Shown in pieces: positions 1 to 21,447 of a stretch of 28,867 nucleotides of DNA. The position numbers and the translations under genes were made by a program. The DNA comes from a virus (lineage: Duplodnaviria; Heunggongvirae; Uroviricota; Caudoviricetes): IMG/VR virus record IMGVR_UViG_2660238462_000003; one strand, 5' to 3'. Positions within the stretch are counted from its first letter, which is position 1. Every line of letters starts with the position of its first letter. The notes below the pieces were generated by a model. It was not told the DNA's origin, made no database searches, and saw only the letters and a list, made by a program, of their open reading frames with translations.

Positions 1-258
1 ATGGCAATTTATTCTCTTGTTGATGAAAACGATTTGCGCACAATGAAGGACATTGATCGGTTCATTCGTGAAAAAGAGTGCATAGCACTTACCACGCTGG
101 CAAACTCAACACGCTGGAAAATGGAGCAGGCAGGTAAATTCCCGCGACGTATCAAGATCGGTGAACGTGCTGCAGGGTATCGACTTTCAGAGGTTCAGGC
201 ATGGATCCGTGGTGAGTGGCATCCTGGATGGAAACCTGGAAAAACAAAACAGCAATAA
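1..258 (+). CDS. AlpA-family winged-HTH DNA-binding protein (phage regulator / excisionase-like)
   Basis: 85 aa ORF; motif ...KFPRRIKIGERAAGYRLSEVQAWI typical of AlpA/Xis-like HTH; followed by terminator; true start could lie upstream of window or at an internal Met. Confidence 0.7.
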   Translation: MAIYSLVDENDLRTMKDIDRFIREKECIALTTLANSTRWKMEQAGKFPRRIKIGERAAGYRLSEVQAWIRGEWHPGWKPGKTKQQ

Positions 259-314: not shown

Positions 315-893
315 ATGAATAAAAATATTGCCGTGACGGGCAAGGGGTACGCTCGTCCAGTGAAAAAATTCTGCGATATTCGTGATCTCGTCGTTCTGCG
401 CTTTGATAGTGTGAACGTTCGTGTGGTGTATCTGAACGGCGATCCGTGGTTTGTTGCAAAAGATGTTTGTGCTGCGCTGGAACTAACCAATTCGCGTACG
501 GCGTTGCAGATGCTTGATGATGATGAAAAGGGAGTAAATTTAACTTACACCCCAGGAGGAAATCAGAATATGAGAATTATCTCTGAGTCAGGTTTCTACA
601 AACTAATAGCCCGCAGCCGCAAAGCAACGACGCCTGGCACATTTGCTCATCGTTTCAGTAACTGGGTATTCAGAAATGTGATACCAGGTATCAGAAAAAC
701 GGGGACTTATGGTATCCCGTGGGGTGCATTACAGGATTTTTCCCGCCGTAAAGAGCAATATCAAATAAGTGCCAGCGAGAAGGGGAGGGAGCTACAGGCA
801 TGTAAGCGCAAAAAGCGTGAGCTGGAGGAAGAAGAAAAAACGCTGATACGTGAATATCAGCCTGAGTTTTACTTTGGTAACCGCATTCAGTGA
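315..893 (+). CDS. BRO-N domain protein (phage antirepressor-like) with charged coiled-coil C-terminus
   Basis: 192 aa; N-terminal ...FVAKDVCAALELTNSRTALQMLDDDEKG...SESGFYKLIARSRKA... resembles BRO-N/KilA-N family; C-terminal KRKKRELEEEEK. Confidence 0.6.
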   Translation: MNKNIAVTGKGYARPVKKFCDIRDLVVLRFDSVNVRVVYLNGDPWFVAKDVCAALELTNSRTALQMLDDDEKGVNLTYTPGGNQNMRIISESGFYKLIARSRKATTPGTFAHRFSNWVFRNVIPGIRKTGTYGIPWGALQDFSRRKEQYQISASEKGRELQACKRKKRELEEEEKTLIREYQPEFYFGNRIQ

Positions 894-2528: not shown

Positions 2529-2828
2529 ATGGAAATGAAAAATTCTGGCTTTATTGCCAGCGGCCCCGCTCGACCTGAATTTATGAACGGCGATATTTAC
2601 CGCGATAAATACGGCGGCACGGTAACGATTAAAGGCGTGGCAGAACGGCGCATCACTTACCGCCGTGAGGGGTATAGCTATGACTGCGTGATGCCTGTTT
2701 ATCAGTTCCGGCGTGATTTTCCCCTGGTATATGCCGCACCCCGCAGTAAGCCCATCAGCAGGGAAAAAGCGTGGGGAAATATCCAGAAAATGAAAACCAT
2801 GATTAACGGATTCAGAGGTAAAAAATGA
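2529..2828 (+). CDS. Hypothetical protein (99 aa) translationally coupled to primase
   Basis: SD AGGAA upstream; stop overlaps primase start (ATGA). Confidence 0.45.
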   Translation: MEMKNSGFIASGPARPEFMNGDIYRDKYGGTVTIKGVAERRITYRREGYSYDCVMPVYQFRRDFPLVYAAPRSKPISREKAWGNIQKMKTMINGFRGKK

Positions 2829-4579
2829 AACTGGCACCGAACGTAAAACAGCAGTCACGCGGCATAAAACACAAAGGAACAGAAGTCATTATTTTTGCGG
2901 GTAGTGATGCCTGGGCACACGCGAAACAATGGCAGGAACATGATGCGCGTATGGCCGGAGATAATGAGCCTCCTGTGTGGCTTGGGGAGCAGCAGCTATC
3001 CGAACTGGATAATCTGCAAATTGTGCCGGAAGGCCGAAAATCAGCACGCATATACAGGGCCGGATATCTTGCGCCTGTAATGATAAAGGCGATTGGTCAG
3101 AAGCTGGCGGCAGCAGGCGTACAGGATGCAAATTTTTATCCTGAGGGTATGCACGGCCAGGAGGTGCAGAACTGGCGCGAATATCTGGCCCGTGAACGCC
3201 AGAATCTTTCTGATGGTCTGGTCATTGAGCTTCCGGTAAAGCAAAAGGCGCAACTTTCGCAGATGGCGGACAGTGAGCGCGCGCAGTTGCTTGCCGATCG
3301 CTTTGATGGCGTTTGCGTACATCCTGAAAGTGAAATCGTTCACGTATGGCGCGGCGGGGTATGGTGTCCGGTCAGCACAATGGAACTTAGCCGCGAAATG
3401 GTGGCGATCTATTCAGAGCACAGGGCCACTTTCAGCAAGCGCGTAATCAATAACGCCGTGGAAGCGTTAAAAGTTATTGCCGAACCAATGGGCGAGCCGT
3501 CTGGCGATTTGCTGCCGTTCGCCAATGGTGCGCTTGACCTGAAAACGGGGGAATTTTCCCCGCACACGCCGGAGAACTGGATCACCACGCACAACGGCAT
3601 TGAGTACACGCCACCAGCACCAGGGGAGAACATCCGCGATAACGCGCCAAACTTTCATAAATGGCTTGAGCACGCAGCCGGAAAAGACCCGCGCAAGATG
3701 ATGCGTATATGTGCCGCGCTGTACATGATTATGGCGAACCGGTACGACTGGCAGATGTTTATTGAGGCCACCGGAGACGGCGGGAGCGGTAAAAGTACAT
3801 TCACACACATAGCCAGCCTTCTGGCAGGGAAACAGAACACGGTAAGCGCTGAAATGACATCGCTTGATGATGCTGGTGGACGTGCGCAGGTTGTCGGGAG
3901 TCGTCTTATCGTCCTGGCTGACCAGCCGAAATATACAGGCGAAGGAACGGGCATCAAGAAAATCACAGGCGGCGACCCCGTGGAAATTAACCCGAAATAT
4001 GAAAAGCGTTTCACGGCGGTAATCAGGGCGGTGGTGCTGGCGACCAACAACAACCCGATGATATTCACCGAACGGGCCGGAGGTGTGGCACGTCGTCGCG
4101 TGATTTTCCGTTTCGACAATATCGTCAGTGAGGCCGAAAAAGACAGGGAGCTACCGGAAAAGATTGCGGCTGAAATCCCCGTTATTATCCGCCGATTGCT
4201 GGCGAACTTTACCGACCCTGAGAAGGCACGGGCTTTACTACTGGAACAGCGTGACGGTGATGAAGCACTGGCAATAAAGCAACAGACGGATCCGGTTATT
4301 GAGTTTTGCCAGTTCCTGAATTTTCTGGAGGAAGCGCGCGGCCTGATGATGGGTGGCGGTGGTGATTCAGTGAAGTACACGACCAGGAACAGCCTTTACC
4401 GCGTCTATCTGGCGTTTATGGCATACGCGGGCAGGAGCAAACCGCTAAACGTGGCTGAGTTCAGCAAGGCCATGAAGCCAGCGGCGAAAGTTTACGGGCA
4501 TGAATATATTACGCGAAAAGTTAAGGGAGTAACGCAGACCAACGCAATTACAACAGACGATTGCGACGCGTTTTTATAA
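2825..4579 (+). CDS. P4-family / D5-type primase-helicase (satellite replication protein)
   Basis: 584 aa; Walker A GDGGSGKST and surrounding D5_N/primase-C-like architecture; followed directly by iteron array. Confidence 0.85.
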   Translation: MKLAPNVKQQSRGIKHKGTEVIIFAGSDAWAHAKQWQEHDARMAGDNEPPVWLGEQQLSELDNLQIVPEGRKSARIYRAGYLAPVMIKAIGQKLAAAGVQDANFYPEGMHGQEVQNWREYLARERQNLSDGLVIELPVKQKAQLSQMADSERAQLLADRFDGVCVHPESEIVHVWRGGVWCPVSTMELSREMVAIYSEHRATFSKRVINNAVEALKVIAEPMGEPSGDLLPFANGALDLKTGEFSPHTPENWITTHNGIEYTPPAPGENIRDNAPNFHKWLEHAAGKDPRKMMRICAALYMIMANRYDWQMFIEATGDGGSGKSTFTHIASLLAGKQNTVSAEMTSLDDAGGRAQVVGSRLIVLADQPKYTGEGTGIKKITGGDPVEINPKYEKRFTAVIRAVVLATNNNPMIFTERAGGVARRRVIFRFDNIVSEAEKDRELPEKIAAEIPVIIRRLLANFTDPEKARALLLEQRDGDEALAIKQQTDPVIEFCQFLNFLEEARGLMMGGGGDSVKYTTRNSLYRVYLAFMAYAGRSKPLNVAEFSKAMKPAAKVYGHEYITRKVKGVTQTNAITTDDCDAFL

Positions 4580-4589
4580 TTTTTTGTAA

Positions 4590-4815
4590 AAGCCATCTAC
4601 CCCATCTACCTGAACAAAATAAACGCATATTATTCAACATGATAAGTGGGTATAGGGCTAGGTAGAAGGCTAATAAAAGCTCTCTACCTCTTCTACCTGA
4701 TTTTATCAGTTTCAGGTAGCAGGGTAGACGGCAGGTAGAGGAGTCAAAAAGCTATCTACCCGCTGAAAGCCGCGCCATTACTGACATGATGAGCATTCGG
4801 GTAGATGGGTAGAGG
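4590..4815. repeat. Iteron array, putative satellite replication origin
   Basis: At least 11 copies of (A/T)CTACC / GGTAG(A/T) core in both orientations (e.g. catctaccccatctacctga, ctctacctcttctacctga, tcaggtagcagggtagacggcaggtagagg, gggtagatgggtagagg); AT-rich flank; immediately 3' of primase. Confidence 0.6.
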
Positions 4816-4864
4816 GGGGGAGGCACAACTAAAAACTTTTTAAACGAGGGGGGGGTGAAAATAA

Positions 4865-5179
4865 ATGCGCATACATAAAAATCACTTAATAAACATGCCA
4901 GCCGAAAACATGAATCAGGGGCGACAAATGACCAAAATTCGCAGAGACAGAACACAGGCAAAATATAAAGCGTTAGACATGACAGAGCTTTCCTTAAAGG
5001 TGGCAATCAAAGCGATAGACCACCACACACGGGCAGGATACGCGAAGGAACATCCCGACCTGATAAGCGCATTCATGACCACAGCAGCGGCAAACTTTGC
5101 CACGCTGACAGAACGGGAGATTGCCGAAGCGGAACAGGTGACAACCATCAATGTTAAAACCGGAGAGCAGACAGCATGA
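4865..5179 (+). CDS. Hypothetical protein (104 aa; alternative start at 4919)
   Basis: ORF with stop overlapping SSB start; purine-rich SD-like sequence upstream of both candidate starts; G8 tract immediately upstream. Confidence 0.4.
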   Translation: MRIHKNHLINMPAENMNQGRQMTKIRRDRTQAKYKALDMTELSLKVAIKAIDHHTRAGYAKEHPDLISAFMTTAAANFATLTEREIAEAEQVTTINVKTGEQTA

Positions 5180-5625
5180 CAGCACAGATAGCGGCTTACG
5201 GGCGGCTGGTGGCTGACCCGCAGTTAAAGACCACCAGCAAAGGGACACAAATGGCGATGGCGAGTATGGCGGTTCCCCTGCCGTGCAGCCAGGCAGATGA
5301 CGGAACGGCGACGATGTGGTTATCCGTCCTGGCGTTTGGCAGACAGGCCGACGCACTGGCAAAACACCACAAAGGCGAACTGGTGAGCGTGGCGGGTAAC
5401 ATGCAGGTAAGCCAGTGGACAGGCCAGAACGGCGAAACGCGGCGGGGCTGGCAGGTTATCGCAGACAGCGTAATCAGTGCGCGAACGGCGCGACCGGGCG
5501 GCAAAAAAGGCCAACAGGGGCAGGCTACTGACGAACTGAACAGAGCAAAACAACAGGCAGATCAGCAAGGAAGCCAGCCACCAGTGGGAGATAATGAGCA
5601 ATGGGGAGATGATATCCCGTTTTAA
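5176..5625 (+). CDS. Single-stranded DNA-binding protein (SSB-like, divergent)
   Basis: 149 aa; OB-fold-like N-terminus alignable to E. coli SSB, Q/G-rich linker, C-terminal acidic tail ending DDIPF. Confidence 0.75.
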   Translation: MTAQIAAYGRLVADPQLKTTSKGTQMAMASMAVPLPCSQADDGTATMWLSVLAFGRQADALAKHHKGELVSVAGNMQVSQWTGQNGETRRGWQVIADSVISARTARPGGKKGQQGQATDELNRAKQQADQQGSQPPVGDNEQWGDDIPF

Positions 5626-5642
5626 ATATTGCCAATAAAAAA

Positions 5643-5667
5643 GGCCGGAAAAAATAAATTTTCCGGC
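5643..5667 (+). terminator. Stem-loop between ssb-like and capsid genes (possible attenuator)
   Basis: ggccggaaaa-aataaa-ttttccggc inverted repeat; no T-run. Confidence 0.3.
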
Positions 5668-5841
5668 ATGCTACATAAATCCCGACCAAAGGGAGTGAAG
5701 ATATTAACACTAATTGTCCGCACTGAAGTTGTCACCCCAAAACTTTATACAACATTGCACTCGGTTGCATGTGTTCGCATGACAAATATCGGTGGTAGCA
5801 TATATCCACAATTATTTTTAATGAATGCAAAGAGGATGCGT

Positions 5842-6882
5842 ATGGTTGATTTATATTCGCCTACTCAGCTTGTACAGGTGGTTAATGCTGTAGATGTACA
5901 AAAACAACTAAATGCGTTGTTTACCAGTTTGTTTTTTACTCGCTCGGTAATGTTTGAATCGCGCGATATTATTCTTGATACAATCGACGATCCAAATATC
6001 CCAATTGCAGCGTTTTGTTCTCCTATGGTGGGTAGTAAAGTTTCACGTGACGAAGGGTACGAATCAAAAACAATTCGTCCAGGCTATATGAAGCCGAAAA
6101 GCAGCATTGATCCAAATAAGTTAGCTGTGCGCCCTGCTGGTGTATCACCTGAGCAATACAATGCTTTTGGGGCACGTAATATTAAAGTTAAACAGGCGAT
6201 TGTAAATCAGGCTAAAGCTATTCGTGCACGTATTGAATGGCTTGCTGTTCAGGCAATCACAACGGGGAAAAATATCATTGAGGGCGATGGTATTGAACGT
6301 TATGAGCTGGACTGGAATATAAAACCACAAAATATCATCACTCAGTCTGGCGGTACTGAGTGGTCAGGTAAGGATAAAGAAACTTTTGATCCAAATGATG
6401 ATATTGAGAGCTACGCAGAATTTAGTGAGGGCGTCACTAATATCATCATTATGGGTGGTAATGTATGGAAGAAATACCGTTCATTCAGAGCGATAAAAGA
6501 GGCTTTGGATACCCGTCGTGGTTCTAATTCCGAACTGGAAACGGCCCTTAAAGACCTTGGTGATTCGGTGAGTTTTAAAGGGTATATGGGCGATGTTGCG
6601 ATTGTTGTTTACAGCGGGCGTTATACCGACGAGGACGGAACAGAAAAACATTTCCTTGATCCTGATTTGATGGTGCTTGGCAATACGGCTCTTCAGGGGA
6701 TTGTCGCCTATGGCGGTATTCAGGATCCGGAGCTAATCCGAATGGGGCTGACTAAAGCCGAACTTGCACCGAAAAACTATATTGTGCCTGGTGATCCGGC
6801 TATTGAATATGTGCAGACACATTCAGCACCACAGCCAATACCGGCCCGCATCAATCGTTTTGTTACCGTTCGCATTGGCTAA
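5842..6882 (+). CDS. Major capsid protein, lambda gpE family
   Basis: Shared blocks with lambda gpE as recalled: NITQSGGTEWS, DTRRGSNSELETA, GDVAIVVYSG, MVLGNT, PGY.KPK; start chosen at ATG 5842 (SD GAGG 6 nt upstream; ORF opens at 5629); about 347 aa vs 341 for gpE. Confidence 0.85.
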   Translation: MVDLYSPTQLVQVVNAVDVQKQLNALFTSLFFTRSVMFESRDIILDTIDDPNIPIAAFCSPMVGSKVSRDEGYESKTIRPGYMKPKSSIDPNKLAVRPAGVSPEQYNAFGARNIKVKQAIVNQAKAIRARIEWLAVQAITTGKNIIEGDGIERYELDWNIKPQNIITQSGGTEWSGKDKETFDPNDDIESYAEFSEGVTNIIIMGGNVWKKYRSFRAIKEALDTRRGSNSELETALKDLGDSVSFKGYMGDVAIVVYSGRYTDEDGTEKHFLDPDLMVLGNTALQGIVAYGGIQDPELIRMGLTKAELAPKNYIVPGDPAIEYVQTHSAPQPIPARINRFVTVRIG

Positions 6883-6891
6883 GGGGGAGCA

Positions 6892-7233
6892 ATGGCTACT
6901 CATTACACTGAACTCATGGCTGGCACTGAAGCACTGGTGACTACGCTGGGGATATTTTCAGCTAATAAAGGGGTAATTCCTGCATTTACGCCACTGATGC
7001 AGGAAGATGCAACAGGTGCACTGGTGGTATGGGATGGTTCGAGCGTAGGTAAAGCGGTTTATGTTTCCGCTGTACAAATCGACACAGCGAAAAAAACACA
7101 GGCACAGGTTTATAAGACAGGTGTTTTAAATGTTGATGCTCTGAACTGGCCTGAGTCTGTAAAAGAACTGTCGGCAAAGGTTGCCGCGTTTGTTGGCTCA
7201 GGTATTTCTGTTCAGCCGCTGGCTCGTGTGTAA
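6892..7233 (+). CDS. Head decoration protein, lambda gpD family
   Basis: 113 aa; PAFTPLMQEDATGALVVWDGSSVGKAV and WPE...AFVGSGISV align with lambda gpD; strong SD AAGGGGGAG. Confidence 0.7.
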   Translation: MATHYTELMAGTEALVTTLGIFSANKGVIPAFTPLMQEDATGALVVWDGSSVGKAVYVSAVQIDTAKKTQAQVYKTGVLNVDALNWPESVKELSAKVAAFVGSGISVQPLARV

Positions 7234-7244
7234 AGGGGGATACA

Positions 7245-7628
7245 ATGCAGAATCATTACAATGACCTTAAGCCAATTGCCGAAATGATGTATCCGGATCC
7301 AGCAGTAGAGGAATTAAAGGCTATTGCTGACAAAATGCGTTTAAGTGAACGCCTTGTTGATATGAATCAGGTGATGGAACTTACTACCCTTAGCCGTCGC
7401 ACATTGCTAAACCTTGAGGCTAGTGGAGAGTTCCCGGAGCGTGTGCAGGTTACGGAAGGGCGTAAGGCCTGGTATTTAAGTGAAGTGATCGACTGGATAA
7501 ACAATATTCCTCGATCTTCTGAATATTGCCGCGTACCTGTCCCAAAAAAGCCAGATGCGGCGCTATGCCTCAAGATTGAGCGTGTACGTCGCAATGCACG
7601 GGATGGTCGCTATAAGTTGATTGGTTGA
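7245..7628 (+). CDS. AlpA-like winged-HTH DNA-binding protein (second copy) immediately upstream of cos
   Basis: 127 aa; MNQVMELTTLSRRTLLNLEASGEFPERVQV...AWYLSEVIDWI matches AlpA/Xis-like HTH; strong SD AAGGGGGA. Confidence 0.6.
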   Translation: MQNHYNDLKPIAEMMYPDPAVEELKAIADKMRLSERLVDMNQVMELTTLSRRTLLNLEASGEFPERVQVTEGRKAWYLSEVIDWINNIPRSSEYCRVPVPKKPDAALCLKIERVRRNARDGRYKLIG

Positions 7629-7650
7629 TGAAATTAGGGCCCGTTCTGGC

Positions 7651-7830
7651 TGGCGGGTCCTTTCCGGCGATCCGGTAGGCTACGGGGCGGCGACCTCGCG
7701 GGTTTTCGCTATTTATGAGCCTTTTTCGGGTGCTGGTGGTGGTTTTGTTGTTCGCTCTATCTCTATGAATAAAAAGGAAAAGATAAAGCCAATACACCAA
7801 CCTGAAACATTACTTAAGTGGGGATATTGA
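7651..7830 (+). other. Lambda-type cos site (cosQ - cosN - cosB)
   Basis: 7685-7696 GGGCGGCGACCT equals the lambda cohesive end; following CGCGGGTTTTCGCTATTTATGA matches the lambda left end; preceding GGGTCCTTTCCGGCGATCCGGTAGGCTACG closely matches the lambda right end (cosQ); downstream cosB region diverges. Confidence 0.8.
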
Positions 7831-8300
7831 TGAAATCGCACCTGATGAACAAAAAAAACATGGCGCAAAGCTGCCGTGTAAGTGCGACAGCGTTCGACAA
7901 GTGGGGAGTGACTCCCGTTGAACGTAAAGGCCGCGAGGCGTTTTATGATGTTGCCAGCGTAATAGACAATCGGGTTAGCAATGCAATTAACCAGATTACA
8001 GACGACAAAGGCGAGATTGATGATGATGAACTCCTACGAGTCAGGATCAGATTGCTGACAGCACAGGCAGAGGCGCAGGAGCTTAAAAACGAGCGCGAAC
8101 GCGGCGACGTTATTGATACAGCGTTTTGTATATACGTGCTTTCAAAATTGGCGAGTCAGATTTCTTCAATCATGGACAGCCTGCCGCTTGCCATGACAAG
8201 GAAGTTTCCCGACATGAAGCCGTCTATGCTGGATGGACTGAAAAAGAAGTTATCAGAGCCTGTAACGCATGCGCAAAACTTGACGAAAACATACCGCTGA
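7830..8300 (+). CDS. Terminase small subunit, lambda Nu1 family (in-frame part; C-terminal domain continues in -1 frame to 8371)
   Basis: RLLTAQAEAQELKNERERGDVIDTAFCIYVLSKLASQISSIMDSLPLAMTRKFPDMK aligns with lambda Nu1; SD GGGGA 5 nt before ATG 7830; -1 frame 8246-8371 encodes EVIRACNACAKLDENIPLMLSDYLMETAG matching the Nu1 C-terminus. Confidence 0.8.
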   Translation: MKSHLMNKKNMAQSCRVSATAFDKWGVTPVERKGREAFYDVASVIDNRVSNAINQITDDKGEIDDDELLRVRIRLLTAQAEAQELKNERERGDVIDTAFCIYVLSKLASQISSIMDSLPLAMTRKFPDMKPSMLDGLKKKLSEPVTHAQNLTKTYR

Positions 8301-8382
8301 TGCTGTCCGATTATCTGATGGAAACTGCCGGAAACGTACCGGATAAGTTGCAGCCGAATAAAGATAAGTAACGTAGTACGCT

Positions 8383-8664
8383 ATGACTGAATCCGAAATA
8401 CTGCGATTAATCCGCCGTGCTTGTGGAATCAGCAAGCAGCATGACGAACAGGCCACGCAGCCGGACAGCGTGACCGCAGATAATTATGTGCGTGTAGTGG
8501 CTGAGGTGATGCGCCGTGACGGTATTGAGCTTAACGGCGTGGATATGCGCAACATACGAACAAGAGTCCTTGAGTTGCTGGCATATCGTCGCCGTTCTCA
8601 ACAACGGAGGGAGAGCGCGAAAAATACTTACCAGTGGAAGAAGCCGGAACGATTGCGGCGGTAA
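8383..8664 (+). CDS. Hypothetical basic protein (93 aa)
   Basis: ORF directly after terS; Arg-rich C-terminus; weak SD; no recognisable family. Confidence 0.35.
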   Translation: MTESEILRLIRRACGISKQHDEQATQPDSVTADNYVRVVAEVMRRDGIELNGVDMRNIRTRVLELLAYRRRSQQRRESAKNTYQWKKPERLRR

Positions 8665-8679
8665 CTTGCTGATATTCCC

Positions 8680-9060
8680 GATAACGCAAAATTGCGCTGG
8701 CTGACTTGTTGCATTGCAAAAAGTTAAGCAGGAAGGCACGGCCTGTAAGATGGGATGCAGTAAGTAGTTCAAGGCTACCTTGTGCTGGCACGCACAGTTA
8801 AGCCGTCGGTGCTGGATATCCCCCACTGGGGGAAAAGCTGGCTACATCCCTCACATCTGAGGACTGATAACGCGACATTGCGCTGGCTGGCAAAGTGCAA
8901 AATTGCACGATGGCCTAACCCATTGATTATTTCGAAAACCTGCAATGCAGGAAATCGGGGAAGTAAGCCTAAGCTATTGATTGTTTCGAAAACCCCCATT
9001 GGGGGATGTCGGGAAAGTAAGACTAACCCATTGATTCTTCCACAATCCTCAATTTGAGGA
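8680..9060. repeat. Non-coding region of short palindromes and degenerate direct repeats
   Basis: Direct repeat gataacgc(a/g)a(a/c)attgcgctggctg at 8680 and 8866; palindromes cgcaaaattgcg, ttgcattgcaa, cccccactggggg, gtgcaaaattgcac, cctgcaatgcagg, cccccattggggg, cctcaatttgagg; three roughly 55-bp units each starting (c/t)cattgatt(n)tt(t/c)c. Confidence 0.5.
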
Positions 9061-9479
9061 GGCCGGAACGTCTACATAGCTGCATCGCCGTAATGATGAT
9101 TCAGCCCACCAGCCAAATCAGCACAGCAACGACAGAATAGCCCGACACAGAAAAACCACGAATATGGGGTTTTTGTTATGACATGGTCATGATGACCACT
9201 CATACAAAACAGGTAAAGCCCACCAGCCTGATTAAAGGTTAACCGGAAAAAAGCCAGGTATCCAATCTCGATATGGGGATCCCTATATCGACATTAACGC
9301 CCACTAAAACTGTGCATATATGCATAGAAAAAGCATCCACCAGCTTTATGACGGATGCCGCTCATCTTATAAATAATCGTGTATTGCAGTGTGTATTGCG
9401 ACTCCTTTAAACGATAGGTCTGAGCATTCGTAATGTACTGTTTTTAAATTTTATTTTTTCCTGTCTTTTCATAAAGGCG

Positions 9480-9707
9480 ATGTATGCCGCCACCATTGAG
9501 AGTGAGCTGGATACGCAGTCAGCGATGGATTTTATTCTGGGCGCGAACAGTCAGGAGCAGCGGGAAAGGCTGACCGGCTGGATTGGTGAAATTGCCGCGT
9601 ATTACGCCGCAGCGCCGGTCCGGCTGGGAGGCGCAAAAGTACCGCACCTGATGCCGGGGGACTCACTGAACCTGCAGACGGCTCAGGACACGGATAACGG
9701 CTACTCC
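9480..9707 (+). CDS. Hypothetical protein, 3' end lost in scaffold gap
   Basis: ORF MYAATIESELDTQSAMDFILG... running into the N-run; unrecognised. Confidence 0.25.
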
Positions 9708-9717
9708 NNNNNNNNNN
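9708..9717. other. Assembly/scaffold gap (10 N)
   Basis: Run of 10 n characters. Confidence 0.95.
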
Positions 9718-9921
9718 CGCAGCTTTACGCTTGTCTTCTCTTATTTTGAAGTACAGATTCGTCAGGTAAGTCAGAAAGCCCAGAACCAGACTTCCCAGCA
9801 CACCAATAGCAGCCCACTGTGATGGACTGACCTGATCAAGCCACTGTAAAAACCAGTAGCCAGCACTGCCTGCGGAGGTGCCGTAGGCAATGCCCGTTGT
9901 TAACTTGTCCATGGATTTCAT
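9718..9921 (-). CDS. Holin, phage 21 S21 (pinholin)-like; C-terminus truncated by gap
   Basis: [63 protein letters not shown]... matches S21/EssD-type holin; strong SD GGAGGTGAGG. Confidence 0.8.
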
Positions 9922-10294
9922 AGCCTCACCTCCGCAAATAACGGATGGTGTACACGGTTCGGAACGAAGAGGGAAAGGTATAGAAGTTACATTAGCGTAA
10001 GGCCTGAACATCTATTCAAAAAGAAAAACGCCAGCGATTATTCTGGCGTAGCTGAAAGCATCATAAAATTATCAAATACGAAAATTACAAAATCATTAAA
10101 ACGCATCACGTTACATCATGTGTTTTTCTAAAAAAATCTTGATGAATATTTGTGGGGAGGAACACCAAAATATCTTCTGAAAACACTTACAAAATATGAC
10201 GTATTTTCATAACCGCATATCTCAGCAACTTTCCCAACAGAATATAAATTGTAGCTTAATAACCTTTCCGCCATCACCATTCGCTCTTCAAGAA

Positions 10295-10680
10295 TTAATT
10301 TTCGTGGATCTCAACTGAGCGTGAGAAGCAGATTGTTTTACGAGCCAACCGCTTAATACGGGTGCGTAGCGTCAGATTATTACGCTCAATGCGTTGGGTG
10401 AATATTTTGCCGGTCAGATGCTTATTCTTCGGCACCTCCCGGCCATAGCTGCCCCAGTCATCGCTGGTCAGCATGCCGATATTGAAGGGTGTAAGCAGTG
10501 CCAGTAGCTCCCGGCACGTTTGATCGGTTCGGGGACCAAAAGTGTAGGCCAGTACACCGCCTGTTTTGGTGTTGTACGCGTACCAGAGTCAGTGTTGCCG
10601 GGCTTTACTGCCAACGTAGCTCCATTGCTCATCAAGCTCGCAGATAAGCGCCACATCAGCATGGGCAACAGGCGAAGAAG
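10295..10680 (-). pseudogene. insB: IS1 insB-like, internal TGA stop and short C-terminus
   Basis: Minus-strand translation LICELDEQWSYVGSKARQH*LWYAYN...MLTSDDWGSYGREVPK...RIERNNLTLRTRIKRLARKTICFSRSVEIHEN resembles InsB; stop falls where IS1 InsB has Trp. Confidence 0.6.
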
Positions 10681-10953
10681 TTATTCGCTTTGGCGCGAGT
10701 TTTTTAAAGTCCGGATGACGGTGTTAATACCAATTTTCAGTGTCCTGGCGGTATCGCGAACCCCGGCACCATTAAAGGCCATTTCAGTTATCCGCTCTTT
10801 CATACCCGGCTTACGTGCTTGATAAGTATAAGTGAGCTGAAACACACGGTGGCAGTCACGGCAGCGAAATCTGTCACGGCCTTTAGGGTTCTGACCATGG
10901 CGGTAAACCTGAGCTGACTGACAACGGGGACAATGAATATTAACTCTGGCCAT
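10681..10953 (-). CDS. insA: IS1 InsA-like zinc-finger/HTH protein
   Basis: 90 aa; CPRCQS...CRDCHRVFQ zinc finger and HTH GINTVIRTLKN typical of IS1 InsA (divergent from K-12 IS1). Confidence 0.8.
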   Translation of the reverse strand: MARVNIHCPRCQSAQVYRHGQNPKGRDRFRCRDCHRVFQLTYTYQARKPGMKERITEMAFNGAGVRDTARTLKIGINTVIRTLKNSRQSE

Positions 10954-11432
10954 GAGATAACCTCAAAAGCCCGTATTATACATCAGACTCAACTAATTAG
11001 AGGCATCACCATAGAACATATGTATGGCATATTATCCACCTGATATCATTGGGGTTACACCAGGTAAGTATAGGTGGGTAATCAATATTCGCCAGTTCAA
11101 CAATAAGGAAAATCTCATTGCATCACAACTATAAAAGCATGTGTTTAACTCGCAAAAAATCATTAAACTAATCTGTTATATTATAATAGCTGCGTGCAAT
11201 AATAATATTATATGCTCTTAATATTCGCTTGAAATATCTTTATATAAAAACAGATTGAATAAAATATTTTGGGGCTGGTATATTTACCAACATTAAATTG
11301 CATCTCAATATTTTCTTCAGCGTGAACAGGATTTTTATACAAACTGACACTATGGGTATCATAGTGTAGTTTTTACGATTGTAAATATCCTGCATGCAGG
11401 AACTCATCACTTTCAGATGATATCGCATACAG

Positions 11433-12392
11433 TTAATTCACCATCAGTCTTAAAGCCAGTTCTTCCGGATAGGGATCGAAGTAATTCTGTGTAAGCAAGT
11501 AATCATTAGGATACTCACCCAGATAATGCTTCAGCAGAGTCAACGGCGCAAGAAGAGGCAATGTGCCAGAACGATAGTTAAGTATAACCTCGCTCAACTC
11601 TTTACGCTGGCGTGTACTTAAGTAGTTACTAAAATACCCCTGTATATGCATCAGCACATTCGTGTGATTTTTACGTGATGCAGGTTTTATGAGAATCGCC
11701 ATCAGCTTATCACGATACACCTCAAAGAATGATTCAAGGTCCGCCCACTCGTGTATTGCAGCCACAAATGGTCCCATATCTTTATAGCCTGCCTGACTAT
11801 GCGCCAACAACTGAAGCTTATAACGACTATGAAAAGCTAATAACTCTCTTCTTGATAATTTCTCCTTGTAAAGGTGATTGAGCTCATGCAAAGCAAAAAC
11901 TCTTTCAACAAAATTCTCACGAAGCACTGGATCATGTAATCGCCCATCCTCTTCAACCGGTAGCCAAGAAAACTTTTCCATCAAAGTGCTCGTAAATAGT
12001 CCCACTCCATCTTTACGACCTCGATTACCATTTTCATCATAGACACGCACGCGCTCCATGCCACAGCTGGGAGATTTAGCACAAACCACAAACCCCGATA
12101 CATCCTTTAATTTGTCCATATAAGAACGACTAAACTCTGTCATTCTCTCTGTCACATCCTCATTCTGGTCGTGGCTGAAACACATCCGTATATTTCCTTG
12201 CGTCGAGCGCACAAGACGTAGAGCAGGACGCGGAACTGGCAGCCCTATAGCCATTTCCGGACATACTGGTCTGAATGTTACCCATTCCACTAATTTGTCC
12301 ATTAAAAAGTCAGCTCTTTTGTGACCACCATCAAAACGAACAGCAGAACCGGCCAAACAACCGCTGATTCCAATCACAGGTTTTTTTATCAT
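11433..12392 (-). CDS. DUF523/DUF1722 (YbgA-like) family protein
   Basis: 319 aa; strong SD GGGGGAGGA; N-terminal Cys-containing DUF523-like region plus C-terminal DUF1722-like region (from memory of family features). Confidence 0.55.
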   Translation of the reverse strand: MIKKPVIGISGCLAGSAVRFDGGHKRADFLMDKLVEWVTFRPVCPEMAIGLPVPRPALRLVRSTQGNIRMCFSHDQNEDVTERMTEFSRSYMDKLKDVSGFVVCAKSPSCGMERVRVYDENGNRGRKDGVGLFTSTLMEKFSWLPVEEDGRLHDPVLRENFVERVFALHELNHLYKEKLSRRELLAFHSRYKLQLLAHSQAGYKDMGPFVAAIHEWADLESFFEVYRDKLMAILIKPASRKNHTNVLMHIQGYFSNYLSTRQRKELSEVILNYRSGTLPLLAPLTLLKHYLGEYPNDYLLTQNYFDPYPEELALRLMVN

Positions 12393-12584
12393 ATCCTCCC
12401 CCTTGACTAATTCATTAACAGATAAACTGTGTAGTGCACGGAATAAATTGCCTTTCTGGCGTCATCACTGACAATTTTTCTGTTATGGACTATTCCTAAT
12501 ATAGTATAAAAGTTCTTTAAGTGATTGGTCGTAATCATCTATCTTTCATACTTACCCTCAACTATCAAAAGTACAGGATTTATT

Positions 12585-13109
12585 ATGAAGTTATGGCCTG
12601 TGTTGACTGGCATTGCACTCTCTTTCACTCTTATAGCATGTAAGGCCCCGACACCACCTAAAGGTGTGCAGCCGATTACAAATTTTGACGCCAACCGCTA
12701 TCTCGGAAAATGGTATGAAATAGCTCGCCTCGAGAACCGGTTCGAACGTGGTCTGGAACAGGTCAGCGCTACTTATGGAAAACGGAACGACGGAGGGATT
12801 CGTGTACTTAACCGTGGATACGATCCAACGAAAAATAAATGGAGCGAGAGCGAAGGTAAAGCATACTTTACTGGAGATACTAAAACTGCAGCGTTGAAGG
12901 TTTCGTTTTTTGGCCCCTTCTATGGTGGCTATAATGTAATCAAACTGGATGATGAGTATAAGTATGCTCTTGTCAGTGGTCCGAACAGAGAATACCTATG
13001 GATTCTGGCAAGGACCCCAACTATTCCAGATAAAGTAAAAGCAGACTATGTGCGAACCGCTCAAAAGCTGGGATTCAATGTCAATGAATTATTATGGGTT
13101 AAACAATAA
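12585..13109 (+). CDS. blc: Outer membrane lipoprotein Blc (bacterial lipocalin)
   Basis: Lipobox LIAC; NFDANRYLGKWYEIARLENRFERGLE...KVSFFGPFYGGYNVI...YLWILARTPTI closely matches E. coli Blc; SD AGGA 6 nt upstream. Confidence 0.85.
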   Translation: MKLWPVLTGIALSFTLIACKAPTPPKGVQPITNFDANRYLGKWYEIARLENRFERGLEQVSATYGKRNDGGIRVLNRGYDPTKNKWSESEGKAYFTGDTKTAALKVSFFGPFYGGYNVIKLDDEYKYALVSGPNREYLWILARTPTIPDKVKADYVRTAQKLGFNVNELLWVKQ

Positions 13110-13136
13110 AATCCCTACCCGAAATGATACTTATTA

Positions 13137-13165
13137 GAAAAAAAACCAGCCTTTGGGGAGGCTGG
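13137..13165 (-). terminator. Rho-independent terminator downstream of Q (tR'-like)
   Basis: On minus strand ccagcctccccaaaggctgg hairpin followed by T8. Confidence 0.5.
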
Positions 13166-13265
13166 CTAAATCAGGAAACAAGCTGTTATATGATAATAAC
13201 TACGTTGCGATTCCAACATTTAAAATGTTAGACTAATGACAATCAGACAGCAACTTTTCTTTTAA

Positions 13266-13643
13266 TTATTTCGAACAATCAGCATCCATCTCCAATCGGA
13301 GATCCAACACCATCAGCATGCCCTCCACTACGCCCTCAGCTTTCTGGAGCATCCTGCCAACCCAACAATCAGATCGCCCATGCTTACGTGCAAGCGCCAT
13401 AAAAGTCATGCCGCCGACATAATAGTCCACCAATAAATCATGCAAATCGCTGTTGTTTTTTTTCAGGCGAGCCATACATCCACAAATGATCATCGCGTCA
13501 TCGTCACAGCATTGCGGGCGAGATTTGACTTTTGAAGAAATTAACCCCTTAAAACCGGCAGCAATGGACGACCAGGTCACATCTTCATGATTATTAGCCG
13601 CCCACGCTCCCCAACGCTCAAGAACCATCTGAATATCACGCAT
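13266..13643 (-). CDS. quuD: Late-gene antiterminator Q (DLP12 QuuD-like)
   Basis: [31 protein letters not shown]...[16 protein letters not shown] matches QuuD/Q82-family; ORF opens at 13658 but start chosen at 13643. Confidence 0.8.
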
Positions 13644-13728
13644 CAACTTACTCCACAAAAATCAGACCAGAACGCCAATTACAAGCAAAAATCAACAAAA
13701 CAGTATTAGTTGATTGTTATCTCTGACT

Positions 13729-13869
13729 TCATACTCCTGCTCCTGTCAGGGTTTTGGCGTAATTCTTCAGTATTCGGTAATCGGTCAAAACAGAACCGGG
13801 GAAACGATATAAGCGCAGACGCCCCCAGCGGTGGCGAAGACGTTCTGCCATATAAAACTCAAACATCAT
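13729..13869 (-). CDS. ylcG: YlcG-like small protein (46 aa)
   Basis: Minus-strand [49 protein letters not shown] between rusA and Q; not in supplied ORF track (under size cut-off). Confidence 0.45.
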
Positions 13870-14228
13870 TCATTCCCCATTTCGGTGATGGTCAGTTCCA
13901 GCCTCCCACCTTTGGTAACAGGCATCTTCACAACGCGGTAATCAACGACCTGAGCATCATCCAGCCAGAAACCTGCTTTAGTGAGTGCGTCAAAAGCGGC
14001 TTTTTGCAGATTATCCAGGTCACGGCGACGGCGATCCGGCATGTGGCACTCAATGCGGATTTTCACAGGCATAGCCAGGCCGATATCCAGCATTGCGTTT
14101 TTAATGATTCGGGCGACGTTATCGCGGTATGCCTGCCCCTCTGCGCTGACGTGCGTGCGCCCGCGATTATGGCGGTAATAGCGATTATTGCTCGGAGGCC
14201 AGGGTAATGTGATGCTGTAGGTATTCAC
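13866..14228 (-). CDS. rusA: Holliday junction resolvase RusA
   Basis: 120 aa [41 protein letters not shown]... matches E. coli RusA as recalled. Confidence 0.9.
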
Positions 14229-14515
14229 GCCTTAATAACCCCCTCTTTCAGCCAGATAACCTGTGTTCTCGCCATACCTTCCAGCGCGCATTCTTTTGCA
14301 TATGCAGCATCGACAAAATGTGTGCGGCGGTCGATTTCGTCGTGGCAGGCAGAACATGCAATGGTGGCAATCAGGTCTGGCGGTTTGGTACCGGTGCCGC
14401 ACAATCCAGTCAGCCGGATATGTGCCAGTACAGACGTTTCAGGGTTGCCATTACATACGCCAGGGATTCTTACCTGGCATTCCCGACTACGCGCTGCTTT
14501 TCTCAAATCAGCCAT
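14225..14515 (-). CDS. ybcO: YbcO-like (DUF1364) nin-region protein
   Basis: [40 protein letters not shown]...[11 protein letters not shown]; start at 14515 with SD AGGAGGAA. Confidence 0.75.
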
Positions 14516-14678
14516 GATTCCTCCTTGCTGCCAGTCGCAACCATTTTTTATCAACCAGGCTGGCGGTATATCCGAGCAGTGTTGGTATTTCGGAAGGCTT
14601 CAGCTCCGGTTTACGCTTACGACGATCTGGTACTCTGTAGATGTGTCCGTTCATGACACGAATAAGCGGTGTAGCCAT
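14508..14678 (-). CDS. ninE: NinE-family protein (56 aa)
   Basis: Minus-strand [59 protein letters not shown]; start overlaps ybcN stop (TAATG); under ORF-track size cut-off. Confidence 0.5.
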   Translation of the reverse strand: MATPLIRVMNGHIYRVPDRRKRKPELKPSEIPTLLGYTASLVDKKWLRLAARRNHG

Positions 14679-15133
14679 TACGCCTCCTGCTTGTCGCGGA
14701 GCAGCTGGAACTCGCAGCTCTGCGGAATAGTCAGGTGGCAGCCAATATTCACCGCCCAGGCTTCAACCTTACACAGGAAGACATACATCTCTCCGGTATC
14801 AAGATCGGAGGTATGGCGTAACGACTGGATAGTGGTGATATCACCGGTTACGACATCAACCAGGTCTTTGGTTTCATAACCGAGATATGTGTGTTTGAGA
14901 GCATCTTTTACCCAAGCTGGAGTGGCGAACGTTTTACCCTTGCTGATGAGGTATTCACTGATTTCGCTGTACCACATGTGGCTGAGTGCATTCTGGGAAA
15001 GACTGCGTCTCTCGCGCCACGGTTTAAGCACCATGCGAAAGCATTTGCCGTCCTCCAGATAAGGCTGGATCTGCCGACCGATAGCGGTGAAGTTACCGCG
15101 ATGCAATTTGATACCATCTTGTGGGAGGTTCAC
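14678..15133 (-). CDS. ybcN: YbcN-like nin-region protein
   Basis: 151 aa ORF resembling DLP12 YbcN; position upstream of ninE-ybcO-rusA. Confidence 0.75.
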
Positions 15134-16827: not shown

Positions 16828-16835
16828 TAAATTTC

Positions 16836-16861
16836 AATAGCACTCACAAATGAGTGCTATT
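16836..16861. terminator. Hairpin between convergent moron genes
   Basis: aatagcactca-caaa-tgagtgctatt perfect 11-bp stem. Confidence 0.4.
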
Positions 16862-16878
16862 GTTGCCACTGAATTACT

Positions 16879-21439: not shown

Positions 21440-21447
21440 TAATCATA

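Follow-up and report, generated by a model that had tools for sequence, protein, structure and literature searches.

A lambda-type capsid and decoration gene pair in a helper-embedded PICI of Escherichia coli

The island and its prophage setting

The stretch of DNA analyzed here (the window, 28,867 nucleotides of the IMG/VR virus record IMGVR_UViG_2660238462_000003) carries at 5842-7233 a gene for a homologue of the lambda major capsid protein gpE followed by one for a homologue of the decoration protein gpD (hereafter E and D), both of which belong to an island of about 10.9 kb (Table 1). A sequence-only reading had placed gpE-like and gpD-like genes at exactly these coordinates, and matches in Pfam, PHROG and PDB bear out both assignments. 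When the annotated and the larger co-oriented island ORFs were scanned, the Pfam and PHROG families detected were AlpA (twice), Bro-N, D5_N/DUF5906 primase, single-strand DNA-binding protein (SSB), E, D and a Nu1-like small terminase subunit (TerS), besides small unknowns. No portal, protease, head-tail connector, scaffold or large terminase subunit (TerL) was found among these ORFs (10 in Pfam and 10, partly overlapping, in PHROGs), in agreement with the reading's remark that the pair stands without portal, protease or scaffold partners; its further statement that nothing else of the head module is present did not hold, as an exact cosN (7685-7696) and a Nu1-like terS gene (7830-8372) lie just downstream.

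Table 1. Features of the island and of the prophage sequence at its right end, in window coordinates.
Feature	Coordinates	Strand	Basis
alpA, AlpA-family regulator/excisionase, first gene past the integrase	1..258	+	Pfam Phage_AlpA 5.4e-14
Bro-N domain protein (PICI "Bro zone")	315..893	+	Pfam Bro-N 4.9e-20
PICI primase/helicase (pri-rep)	2825..4579	+	Pfam D5_N 1.1e-15, DUF5906 5.1e-10, Pox_D5
Iteron-like direct repeats downstream of pri	4588..4766	.	Repeat families D2/D8, three copies, spacing 87 and 72 nt
SSB, end of the replication zone	5176..5625	+	Pfam SSB 6.4e-16
GC-rich hairpin between replication module and E	5644..5667	.	Terminator-like scan
Candidate promoter of an E-D operon	5754..5801	+	Read from the sequence; conservation
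E, PICI major capsid protein homologue, lambda gpE type, 346 aa	5842..6882	+	Pfam, PHROG, PDB, AF2; orthologue of EcCICFT073 c1499 / PDB 3BQW
D, PICI head decoration protein homologue, gpD/SHP type, 113 aa	6892..7233	+	Pfam, PHROG, PDB; orthologue of EcCICFT073 c1500
Second AlpA-family protein, directly 3' of D	7245..7628	+	Pfam Phage_AlpA 1.1e-08; PHROG 2790 2.2e-48; PDB 8C3T AlpA 6.6e-10
Exact lambda-type cosN GGGCGGCGACCT	7685..7696	+	Zero mismatches; sole match in the window
Nu1-like small terminase gene (terS)	7830..8372	+	Pfam Phage_Nu1 9.5e-22; PHROG 57 terS 5e-51 (intact L002 copy)
Conserved 93-aa protein, PHROG 1561 (unknown function)	8383..8664	+	PHROG 1.2e-55; no Pfam match
Three 54-nt repeats in tandem, close to the right island end	8913..9074	.	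Repeat family D1
attR identity block AAGGCGAT, right PICI end	9474..9481	+	attL and attR junctions compared in L002
Helper portal gene (lambda B type), C-terminal part	9482..9708	+	Translation and sequence; split portal pseudogenes in L001 and L002

On the basis of gene content and junctions, the island is classified as a classical Gram-negative phage-inducible chromosomal island (PICI) of E. coli that is helper-embedded, being inserted in the portal gene of a lambdoid prophage and co-oriented with it. The integrase gene lies just beyond the left edge of the window and was found directly upstream of alpA in L001 and L002, two loci in complete genomes that are 98.8-99.9% identical to the window (99.9% for L002); with int taken from these loci, int and alpA occupy the left end of the island and are co-oriented with most of its genes. 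The primase is the island's own and is followed by the iteron-like repeats, a candidate origin whose place matches that of Gram-negative PICI origins (PMC6092414). Comparison of the attL and attR junctions in L002 gave AAGGCGAT as the att core and 10,925 bp between the cores, as expected for such elements (approximately 10-20 kb), and no tail or lysis families occur among the island ORFs. Directly past attR, and on the same strand, stands the C-terminal fragment of the helper portal gene, truncated at 9709-9718 by a scaffold gap of 10 N. In L001, L002 and L013 the island is flanked by split "phage portal protein" pseudogenes; as the window itself contains the right junction only, its portal-site configuration is probable by comparison with L001 and L002.

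The site at 7685-7696 agrees with the lambda cosN consensus at every position; as in lambda, it lies just upstream of a terS-like gene. In the window this gene is frameshifted, one A having been lost in the run at 8241-8245 according to the alignment with L001 and L002. The Nu1-like protein (180 aa) aligns with helper Nu1 from end to end at 36% identity and is 81% identical to the 180-aa Nu1-like protein of locus L010, and no solved relative was found for it. As RppA and RppC have 144 and 153 aa, respectively (PMC6739421), the length of the protein together with its end-to-end alignment led to rejection of an Rpp identity, and sequence comparison identifies the gene as a terS homologue. No 144-aa Rpp-type gene was recognized in the window.

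The second AlpA gene 3' of D is also present in L003-L006 and L017. An N-terminal "HY.(D/E)L" motif common to D and this second AlpA (repeat D6) was attributed to chance because it is absent in L003-L006. The tandem 54-nt repeats may represent attP arm or cosB-type sites. No family match to P4-type Sid or Psu was obtained among the island ORFs, D being a member of the gpD/SHP family rather than Psu. A search of the whole window against Rfam returned no RNA families, and PADLOC returned no defence-family match for E, D, the Bro protein or the 93-aa ORF.

The shell and decoration genes

The E gene is complete, from an ATG at 5842, preceded by the Shine-Dalgarno-like AAGAGGA (5830-5836), to a TAA at 6880-6882, and its product matches the Pfam family Phage_cap_E (PF03864) over profile positions 4-327 of 329 (E=1.1e-41, 143.4 bits against a cutoff of 22.9) and the PHROG "major head protein" (2e-89). 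Among solved structures, sequence matches were obtained to 3BQW (2.7e-121) and lambda gpE (7VI9, 4.7e-77), and an AF2 model of moderate confidence (mean pLDDT 70.9) gave TM scores of 0.86 to 3BQW and 0.84 to lambda gpE (7SJ5), which predicts an HK97-like fold as in the solved gpE structures. The insertions and deletions that separate it from lambda E span only 1-4 residues, residues of approximately 221-240 (LDTRRGSNSELETA) are near-identical to those of lambda E, and 67 positions conserved at 90% or more carry the same residue in the PICI clade and in the phage set alike.

D starts 9 nt past the stop codon of E, with GGGGGAG ahead of it, and matches the Pfam family HDPD (PF02924; E=4.1e-15, 56.4 bits against a cutoff of 29.1), the PHROG "head decoration" (6e-26) and, by sequence against PDB, phage 21 SHP (1TD0, 3.8e-16) and lambda gpD (7VII, 7.9e-12). 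The two island proteins thereby fall into the same Pfam families and fold as lambda gpE/gpD and phage 21 SHP; nevertheless, D differs from gpD and SHP in its N-terminal segment and in a C-terminal VQPLxx extension, and the order of the genes is E then D, outside any complete head operon, whereas lambda has D then E. The description of both proteins as homologous to, but substantially diverged from, their lambda counterparts was confirmed: identity is 41-42% between E and its counterpart in the helper prophage and 42.3% between E and lambda E, while D shows 35-38% to helper or lambda D (38% to helper D across 78 residues) and 35-40% when phage 21 SHP is included beside lambda gpD. Given this homology and its co-inheritance with E, D may form a trimer at the three-fold sites of an expanded shell. 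Since gpD docks at the three-fold sites by way of the gpE E-loop and N-arm (PMC5701804), retention of a cognate D would make sense only if its E partner forms an expanded lattice.

Upstream of E, GC-rich self-complementary segments of differing sequence were recognized by eye in L003, L004 and L006 at a place similar to that of the hairpin listed in Table 1. The candidate promoter comprises three repeats of the type TTGCA(C/T) at intervals of about 10 nt (5754-5780), a -35-like TTCGCA (5774-5779), a TG (5793-5794) and a -10-like TAGCAT (5796-5801). A sigma-70 consensus scan reported no promoter upstream of E, the candidate scoring 8/12 plus the extended -10 TG; the repeat block and TGnTAGCAT are retained, amid otherwise poor conservation, in relatives from Kluyvera, Superficieibacter, Cedecea and Kosakonia, and it is this conservation that suggests promoter activity.

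Relatives, lineage and selection

The E-D pair is already known as a hallmark of Gram-negative PICIs, and as a textbook property of these elements it is therefore no discovery. Fillol-Salom et al. (2018, PMC6092414) described the same pair in EcCICFT073 as c1499 (capsid) and c1500 (decoration), and c1499 had been crystallized in 2008 (PDB 3BQW). Of 29 reference Gram-negative PICIs, 21 have a capsid gene (PMC10111431), and SatelliteFinder treats this gene as a core PICI component (PMC10085698). The island of the window shares with EcCICFT073 the E-to-D order, the place of the pair after the pri/SSB replication module, and int and alpA. It differs in carrying a second AlpA and a Nu1-like terS after D, in its location in a prophage portal gene instead of a chromosomal site, and in lacking a ribbon-helix-helix-like ORF of 68-75 aa that overlaps the E start in islands of the EcCICFT073 c1499 type.

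A closer parallel in setting is offered by the helper-embedded PICIs (11capE and others) reported by Tommasini, Mageeney & Williams (2023, PMC10111431), which, like the island studied here, are small int-alpA-Bro-pri islands with their own E-family capsid gene, integrated inside a lambdoid head gene and co-oriented with it; the target in the window, B (portal), is one of the main target genes of these elements. L005 and L006, the closest relatives by E (80% and 85% identity, respectively), interrupt the helper E gene at about codon 83-86, as 11capE also lies in helper E.

Other satellites with shell proteins of their own are also known. Ccm of SaPIbov5 (PMC6893505) is an HK97-fold homologue of the helper capsid protein encoded, as is island E, without portal or protease on a cos-packaged island; it is found in particles and redirects prolate heads to small T=4 heads, whereas no size change was seen with an E. 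coli PICI orthologue, and it is 23% identical to the helper capsid protein and has no partner decoration protein, while island E is accompanied by D. Capsid-forming PICIs such as EcCIEDL933 (Alqurainy et al., 10.1101/2022.09.08.507074) share a related int-alpA-rep backbone and an own shell protein with the island, but they encode the full set of capsid, protease, portal, connectors, HNH, TerS and TerL and make their own small capsids; the island has no portal, protease, connectors or TerL beside its capsid gene and does not belong to this class. The premise of novelty in the sequence-only reading, according to which known satellites alter helper capsid size through scaffold-type proteins and not through a replacement shell protein, is contradicted by these precedents (Ccm, capsid-forming PICIs and c1499/c1500).

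Sequence comparison indicates that the pair is an old satellite-specific lineage and not helper debris, because no deposited phage E exceeds 42.3% identity to island E and the pair shows no extra closeness to its own helper (identities of 0.41 and 0.46 to the own helper and of 0.40 and 0.44 to a foreign helper). Recent capture from the helper was rejected on the same two observations, and near-identity to helper E and D, the sign of recent recombination debris named in the sequence-only reading, was not found in the alignments. Each of the 12 distinct elements surveyed, which come from 12 host genera or species, has E before D, irrespective of replicase type (three represented) and of the type of integration site (five represented); a contig search with the clade alignment gave four loci, and exact-protein look-ups completed the genomic context. 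E and D have been inherited together, their distances being strongly correlated (Mantel r=0.93, p=2e-4). Besides prophage genes, the integration sites include chromosomal positions far from any prophage, namely fis and a site next to phoQ. It was also observed that L016 lies within an apparent tail sheath gene, in a prophage whose tail module is P2-like.

Both genes are under strong purifying selection. Island E gave dN/dS values of 0.02-0.08 in comparisons at 80-92% protein identity, where synonymous sites are saturated; within E. coli the value was 0.055, and island D gave 0.07-0.12. The corresponding helper values are 0.04-0.20 (E) and 0.2-0.4 (D), and the island copies are therefore at least as constrained, and on these values a pseudogene or relic was rejected. 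The protein clusters have 1,275 and 643 members, and the frames are intact across the 12 elements; truncated alleles are few, e.g., P0013 (233 aa) on a 41 kb contig. Among 5,426 complete E. coli genomes, satellites with the pair were detected in at least 395 (window type) and at least 598 (CFT073 type). As to the distance between these two types, E and D of the window are 56% and 54% identical, respectively, to those of L010, whose E is about 96% identical to 3BQW. In L015 a gpC-type protease/scaffold gene, only 50% identical to any phage protein, follows D, showing that the lineage can travel with further head-assembly genes.

Average-linkage clustering at 52% placed 28 island sequences (without P0043) apart from the phage set, while a midpoint-rooted neighbor-joining tree did not recover the clade as monophyletic because the chimera P0043 was included. 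In P0043 (locus L019), helper residues 1-232 are joined to island residues 233-342, with the crossover within 16 nt of identity. This sequence comes from one metagenome scaffold, and its junction is spanned by no complete E. coli genome; it was rejected as a natural helper/PICI hybrid and is likely an assembly artefact.

Possible functions of the pair

The only experimental information comes from EcCICFT073. When lambda served as helper, only DNA of phage size was packaged; deletion of c1499 or c1500 neither reduced transfer nor relieved interference with lambda, and an island in which c1499 had been swapped for a size-neutral marker was transferred at high frequency (PMC6092414). When the post-ori genes were cloned singly in pBAD18, only c1503 (rppA) blocked lambda, with similar results for phi80 (PMC6739421). 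Any structural role of the pair is thus not essential, at least when the helper is lambda, phi80 or the one native to CFT073. The puzzle is that a pair whose purifying selection at least equals that in phages, and which is kept as a unit while replicases and integration sites are swapped, is yet without phenotype in the sole experimental system.

The E-D pair sits with cos and terS in a packaging zone, and the explanation we tentatively prefer, which we rate a little below an even chance, is that E and D are working, assembly-competent shell and cement subunits that are used on the helper portal and scaffold in full-size heads and are redundant with laboratory helpers. Upon induction, E, D, the second AlpA, cos and terS would be transcribed as a late/packaging operon with E-D first. 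Island E would then assemble on the helper portal, scaffold/protease and chaperonin into full-size T=7 heads, either alone or mixed with helper E, island D would clamp the three-fold sites of this lattice, and approximately four island genomes (4 x 10.9 kb) would be packaged from cos to cos. In favor of this explanation are the full-length homology and the fold, the strong purifying selection, the constant gene order and the co-inheritance of the pair, its separation from all phage and helper sequences and, in EcCICFT073, the phage-sized DNA and the frequent transfer of the island with the size-neutral marker. Under laboratory conditions helper E and D would make the island pair redundant, which would explain the absent knock-out phenotype in EcCICFT073. 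The benefit may be conditional, consisting in the supply of shell and cement when the island lies inside or upstream of helper head genes, or in use with natural helpers. Against this explanation stand the ineffective deletions in EcCICFT073 and the difficulty of accounting for such strong selection on redundant genes. A supply benefit for embedded islands also leaves the pair in the islands at fis and beside phoQ unexplained, and the L016 island, in its prophage with P2-like tail genes, is a further difficulty.

An unlikely further reading is that, with natural and often embedded lambdoid helpers, satellite E and D build satellite-specific shells on a stolen helper portal, whose size or stability might differ from that of helper heads. 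The negative results with EcCICFT073 would then reflect the laboratory helpers, and such islands would form a widespread class intermediate between classical PICIs, which in this scheme take over entire helper capsids, and capsid-forming PICIs, which take only the tails. Knowledge of the function of the pair would help to clarify the kinship of classical and capsid-forming satellites, and would show whether the two kinds of particle, satellite and helper, are made of different proteins.

The sequence-only reading had offered two mechanisms, smaller capsids matched to the island genome and poisoning of helper capsid assembly. Its descriptive part stands and its premise of novelty does not, and neither mechanism is supported in the EcCICFT073 orthologues, in which packaged DNA was phage-sized, interference persisted in the deletions and lambda was blocked by c1503 alone (PMC6092414, PMC6739421). 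For the island of the window both proposals appear weakened rather than excluded, because those tests concern another sub-lineage (56%/54% identity) and not a natural embedded helper.

In a Ccm-like size redirection, island E, stabilized by its own D, would replace or mix with helper E and alter curvature, giving small heads with room for one or two copies of the island but not for the helper genome. Precedent is provided by Ccm, a capsid-protein homologue that yields T=4 heads (PMC6893505), and by PmCI172, which encodes a capsid homologue and has its DNA packaged into small heads (PMC6092414); by rough volume scaling, a T=3 head would take one copy of the 10.9 kb island and a T=4 head two, and the window sub-lineage shares only 56% identity with the c1499 type used in the experiments. 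The phage-sized DNA and ineffective deletions in EcCICFT073 argue against it, and with such short insertions and deletions relative to lambda E nothing obvious points to changed geometry, making this redirection quite improbable.

Slightly less probable still is a back-up for the interrupted head operon, in which island E and D would provide the shell and cement subunits as long as the composite prophage has not excised, or when expression of the helper head genes is delayed. This idea was raised by Tommasini et al., who found 97% of embedded islands in genes A, B, C or E (PMC10111431), and it agrees with the position of the window island in the portal gene upstream of helper C, D and E and with the interruption of helper E itself by the L005 and L006 islands. 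However, the pair is kept at the chromosomal sites (fis, beside phoQ) far from prophages, D is always carried yet never interrupted, and Tommasini et al. themselves call the redundancy not essential (PMC10111431).

In a role in interference or defence, the diverged subunits would enter the capsids of the helper, or of other invading lambdoid phages, and ruin them. Mixed assembly is conceivable given the 42% identity to lambda E and the near-identical segment 221-240, and PICIs commonly interfere with their helpers (PMC6092414). Such a role is nevertheless very unlikely, as neither EcCICFT073 deletion restored lambda plaques (PMC6092414), c1503 was the sole blocking gene among those cloned singly, for lambda and similarly for phi80 (PMC6739421), PADLOC found no defence family, and the pair would belong to an induction-dependent operon. 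Finally, a decaying remnant of a captured helper late-gene cluster, without present function, might be suspected from the capture of prophage late genes by PICI late zones (PMC10111431), the knock-outs without phenotype (PMC6092414) and the few truncated alleles such as P0013, but is scarcely credible in view of the selection analysis (dN/dS of 0.02-0.08 at saturated synonymous sites), a phage source no closer than 42%, an own helper no closer than a foreign one, and frames intact across 12 elements and large protein clusters.

Identity of the E–D pair and architecture of its island

Lambda E- and D-like genes lacking portal, protease or scaffold partners had been proposed in the sequence-only reading, and both parts of this description were confirmed at the coordinates given there, the gene assignments far beyond chance. 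The two ORFs are intact and each has its own Shine-Dalgarno-like sequence, with the D-like ORF (113 codons) beginning 9 nt past the E-like ORF (346 codons) on the same strand. In Pfam, Phage_cap_E covers the E-like protein end to end (E=1.1e-41) and the D-like protein hits HDPD, the lambda head-decoration family (E=4.1e-15); PHROGs concur on both. Among PDB sequences, E matched 3BQW (2.7e-121) far more strongly than lambda gpE (7VI9, 4.7e-77), and D matched phage 21 SHP (3.8e-16) as well as lambda gpD. An AlphaFold model of E (pLDDT 70.9) gave TM scores of 0.86 on 3BQW and 0.84 on lambda gpE. 3BQW is a 2008 crystal structure entitled 'putative capsid protein of prophage (E. coli CFT073)', to which the E protein of a PICI (phage-inducible chromosomal island) beside phoQ is ~96% identical.

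A phage satellite occupies the left 9.5 kb of the window. Pfam and PHROG scans of the island ORFs revealed no gene for a portal, protease, scaffold, connector or large terminase, and none for tail or lysis functions. An exact lambda cosN, GGGCGGCGACCT (7685-7696), separates the second AlpA gene from the terS-like gene, giving the island its own cos in a lambda-style arrangement. The same island with its integrase was found in complete genomes (98.8-99.9% identical DNA; 10,925 bp between att cores), where it sits co-oriented inside the portal gene of a lambdoid prophage, with the helper's own C, D and E just 3' of the insertion. By the definition of Tommasini et al. (PMC10111431), the island is a helper-embedded PICI.

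Features of the island and of a cargo-like segment in the lambdoid prophage of the right contig
Feature	Coordinates	Strand	Remark
alpA	1-258		
Bro-N gene	315-893		followed by small ORFs of no assigned family
D5_N/DUF5906 primase	2825-4579		
Iteron-like repeats	4588-4766		3' of primase
SSB	5176-5625		
E-like ORF	5842-6882	+	
D-like ORF	6892-7233	+	
Second AlpA-family gene	7245-7628		3' of D
Nu1-like small terminase gene	7830-8372		
93-aa protein	8383-8664		no assigned function
Three tandem 54-nt repeats	8913-9074		near island right end
attR core	9474-9481		
IS1 InsA-like ORF	10681-10953		by eye only
2-thiouracil desulfurase/DUF1722 gene	11433-12392	-	
Lipocalin gene	12585-13109		

The Nu1-like gene has A5 at 8241-8245 versus A6 in two near-identical complete genomes, so that its frame is shifted and the last ~40 residues are lost, reflecting either a homopolymer sequencing error or a true inactivation of a packaging gene. 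The tandem repeats are 100, 80 and 61% identical to the first copy and each contains a short palindrome, and two 24-nt repeats are present at 8680 and 8866; these right-end repeats may serve as arm sites for the integrase or as cosB-type sites for terminase.

Lineage, co-inheritance and constraint

The proposed divergence from lambda also held. Island E is 42.3% identical to lambda E and 42% to the helper prophage E; for island D, the identity to helper D is 38% across 78 residues. A search of 50,697 deposited phage genomes gave no E closer than that of lambda and no D above 41% identity. In a large protein collection, E homologues form one group from 99% to ~50% identity, followed by a gap and then phage-type sequences at 43% or less, and clustering sets 28 island-type sequences apart from the phage set. 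Island E shows no excess likeness to the E of its own helper (0.41 versus 0.40 for a foreign helper in E. coli, 0.46 versus 0.44 in Edwardsiella), indicating that the pair is an old, satellite-specific lineage. These comparisons reject recent capture from the helper and recombination debris, the latter having been named in advance as the outcome if the proteins proved nearly identical to the helper's.

Twelve distinct elements with an island-type E were surveyed, from E. coli (several types), Kluyvera, Superficieibacter, Cedecea, Kosakonia, Edwardsiella, Lelliottia, Salmonella, Serratia and one unassigned read-archive assembly (L018). E is directly followed by D, after the replication module, in all 12, whereas the lambda order is D-E, and E and D distances across elements are strongly correlated (Mantel r=0.93, p=2e-4). 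Three replicase types (D5_N primase, AAA_25 and DUF927) occur, and five integration sites: a prophage portal gene, a prophage E gene at about codon 83-86, fis, beside phoQ, and an apparent tail sheath gene in a prophage whose tail module is P2-like. Judged from these sequences, E and D are inherited as one unit and the rest of the island is shuffled. At a threshold of at least 95% nucleotide identity, the window-type pair is present in 395 and the CFT073-type pair in 598 of 5,426 complete E. coli genomes, both annotated in RefSeq as 'major capsid protein' and 'head decoration protein'.

Pairwise Nei-Gojobori dN/dS of island E was 0.02-0.08 at 80-92% protein identity, where synonymous sites are saturated (dS above 1.5), and 0.055 for the closest pair within E. 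coli; island D gave 0.07-0.12. Compared with helper prophage genes (0.04-0.20 for E, 0.2-0.4 for D), island E and D are under constraint no weaker than that on true phage head genes. Sixty-seven E positions are at least 90% conserved with the identical residue in the island clade and the phage set, residues ~221-240 are almost the same in both, and indels relative to lambda E involve 1-4 residues only. Island D carries a clade-specific N-terminal segment and a C-terminal VQPLxx extension; the N-terminus of lambda gpD is a strand pairing with the E-loop and N-arm of gpE (PMC5701804).

In the island that Lelliottia sp. carries at fis, E and D are directly followed by a gpC-type S49 protease/scaffold gene (L015:11409-12752) only 50% identical to any deposited phage, which implies that some islands of the family hold a larger, equally diverged head-gene set. 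This island also has a Phage_HCP gene after alpA. In Salmonella enterica (L016), a same-family island with E and D at ~4292-12000 lies in a prophage with tail genes of the P2-like kind, with baseplate/tail-fibre genes on one side and the tube gene on the other. The gene interrupted is apparently that of the tail sheath, a 301-aa ORF (14260-15165) being by eye the C-terminal part of the sheath. In addition, an ENA metagenome scaffold (L019:2801-3829) encodes an E protein, P0043, that joins helper-type residues 1-232 to island-type residues 233-342 at a 16-nt identity, with helper portal, protease and D upstream and island D downstream. Since its junction is spanned by no complete E. coli genome, this apparent natural hybrid is probably an assembly artefact; a real recombinant of this type would be informative.

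Published tests and possible roles of the pair

The feature, its distribution and the hypothesis of the sequence-only reading have all been published before, and that hypothesis did not pass its first experimental tests. In the model island EcCICFT073, c1499 and c1500 were described as capsid and head decoration proteins, respectively, by Fillol-Salom et al. (2018; PMC6092414). Tommasini et al. (2023) reported that 21 of 29 reference Gram-negative PICIs have a capsid gene, and also described embedded islands with their own E homologue (PMC10111431). SatelliteFinder counts 'capsid morphogenesis' among its five core PICI components (de Sousa et al. 2023, PMC10085698), and a review by Dokland noted that EcCICFT073 has a capsid homologue, yet is packaged in normal-size capsids (PMC6893505). 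The premise that satellites use no replacement shell protein is contradicted by SaPIbov5 Ccm and capsid-forming PICIs.

It is argued here, from sequence features, that E and D are functional as a shell-and-cement pair, because both are complete, show the expected fold, evolve under strong purifying selection and stay together, with cos and terS, in a packaging zone. No role is known for a decoration protein except on an assembled, expanded lattice. Together, these points favour the building of full-size heads, a tentative reading given slightly less than an even chance. Island E, by itself or together with helper E, would form such heads on the helper's portal with its scaffold/protease and chaperonin, and island D, presumably incorporated into the particles, would stabilise them. 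Cos-to-cos packaging of ~4 island genomes would amount to 43.7 kb (90% of lambda length), and the pair would be redundant in the laboratory owing to the helper's own E and D.

Ccm-like redirection of capsid size, akin to the first proposal of the sequence-only reading, is unlikely and unsupported for the EcCICFT073 orthologues, as only phage-sized DNA was packaged when lambda served as helper (PMC6092414). A little less probable still is a back-up role, in which embedded islands that break up the helper head operon would bring their own supply; it is attractive for the window island and its E-gene-embedded relatives but leaves islands at chromosomal sites unexplained. Assembly poisoning (the second proposal) or defence is improbable and likewise unsupported in EcCICFT073: deletion of c1499 or c1500 did not restore lambda plaques (PMC6092414), and among post-ori genes cloned singly in pBAD18 only c1503 (rppA) inhibited lambda (PMC6739421). 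That so complete and constrained a pair is a decaying remnant can hardly be credited. Island transfer in EcCICFT073 was not reduced by the c1499 and c1500 deletions (3.8e3 and 8.7e3 transductants per ml for c1499 and c1500, respectively, versus 8e3), and a size-neutral c1499::cat island was transferred at 1e5-1e6 (PMC6092414). For the window island, the small-capsid and poisoning hypotheses are weakened rather than refuted by tests on orthologues that are only 56%/54% (E/D) identical to its proteins and were studied with other helpers. A pair so strongly conserved yet without a knock-out phenotype in EcCICFT073 poses a real question, which is not made newly testable here.

The spacer before E and the remainder of the window

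A hairpin (5644-5667) divides the replication genes from a block of TTGCA-type repeats. This segment (5754-5801, upstream of E) has three TTGCA(C/T)-type copies at a spacing of ~10 nt, then TGGTAGCAT; the -35/-10 pair that comes after the repeats is weak but has an extended -10 TG. The repeat block and the -10-like element are kept in four other genera, whereas the surrounding spacer is not. This segment is a candidate activator-dependent promoter, suggesting that E and D, if expressed, are probably transcribed from a dedicated promoter. In six relatives from other sub-lineages (L007, L008, L010, L013, L015 and L018), the E start is overlapped by an ORF of 68-75 aa whose N-terminus is ribbon-helix-helix-like (GGVSVYISPDIVAAL...) (ATGA/TAATG; e.g., L010:9795-10001, in a c1499-type locus); it is absent from the window sub-lineage, where the repeat-bearing spacer takes its place.

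The C-terminal part of a lambda-type portal gene follows attR and is ended by a 10-N scaffold gap (9709-9718) joining two contigs, the left ending in this helper portal gene (+ strand) and the right starting in a truncated lambdoid holin gene (- strand). As the two sides are not colinear, their adjacency is a scaffolding artefact, and the prophage at 9719-27449 therefore cannot be assumed to be the host of the island. Between its exo/bet region and integrase, this lambdoid prophage encodes a 200-aa predicted membrane protein of low G+C (25133-25735, - strand) with no Pfam or PADLOC match. A 472-aa ORF in the nin region (15409-16827; G+C about 36-39%), antisense to its neighbours, has no Pfam match and a weak PADLOC match to the candidate defence family HEC-07 (1e-9), and may be defence cargo. 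The low-G+C segment between the holin and Q antiterminator genes (10681-13109) looks like moron-type cargo.
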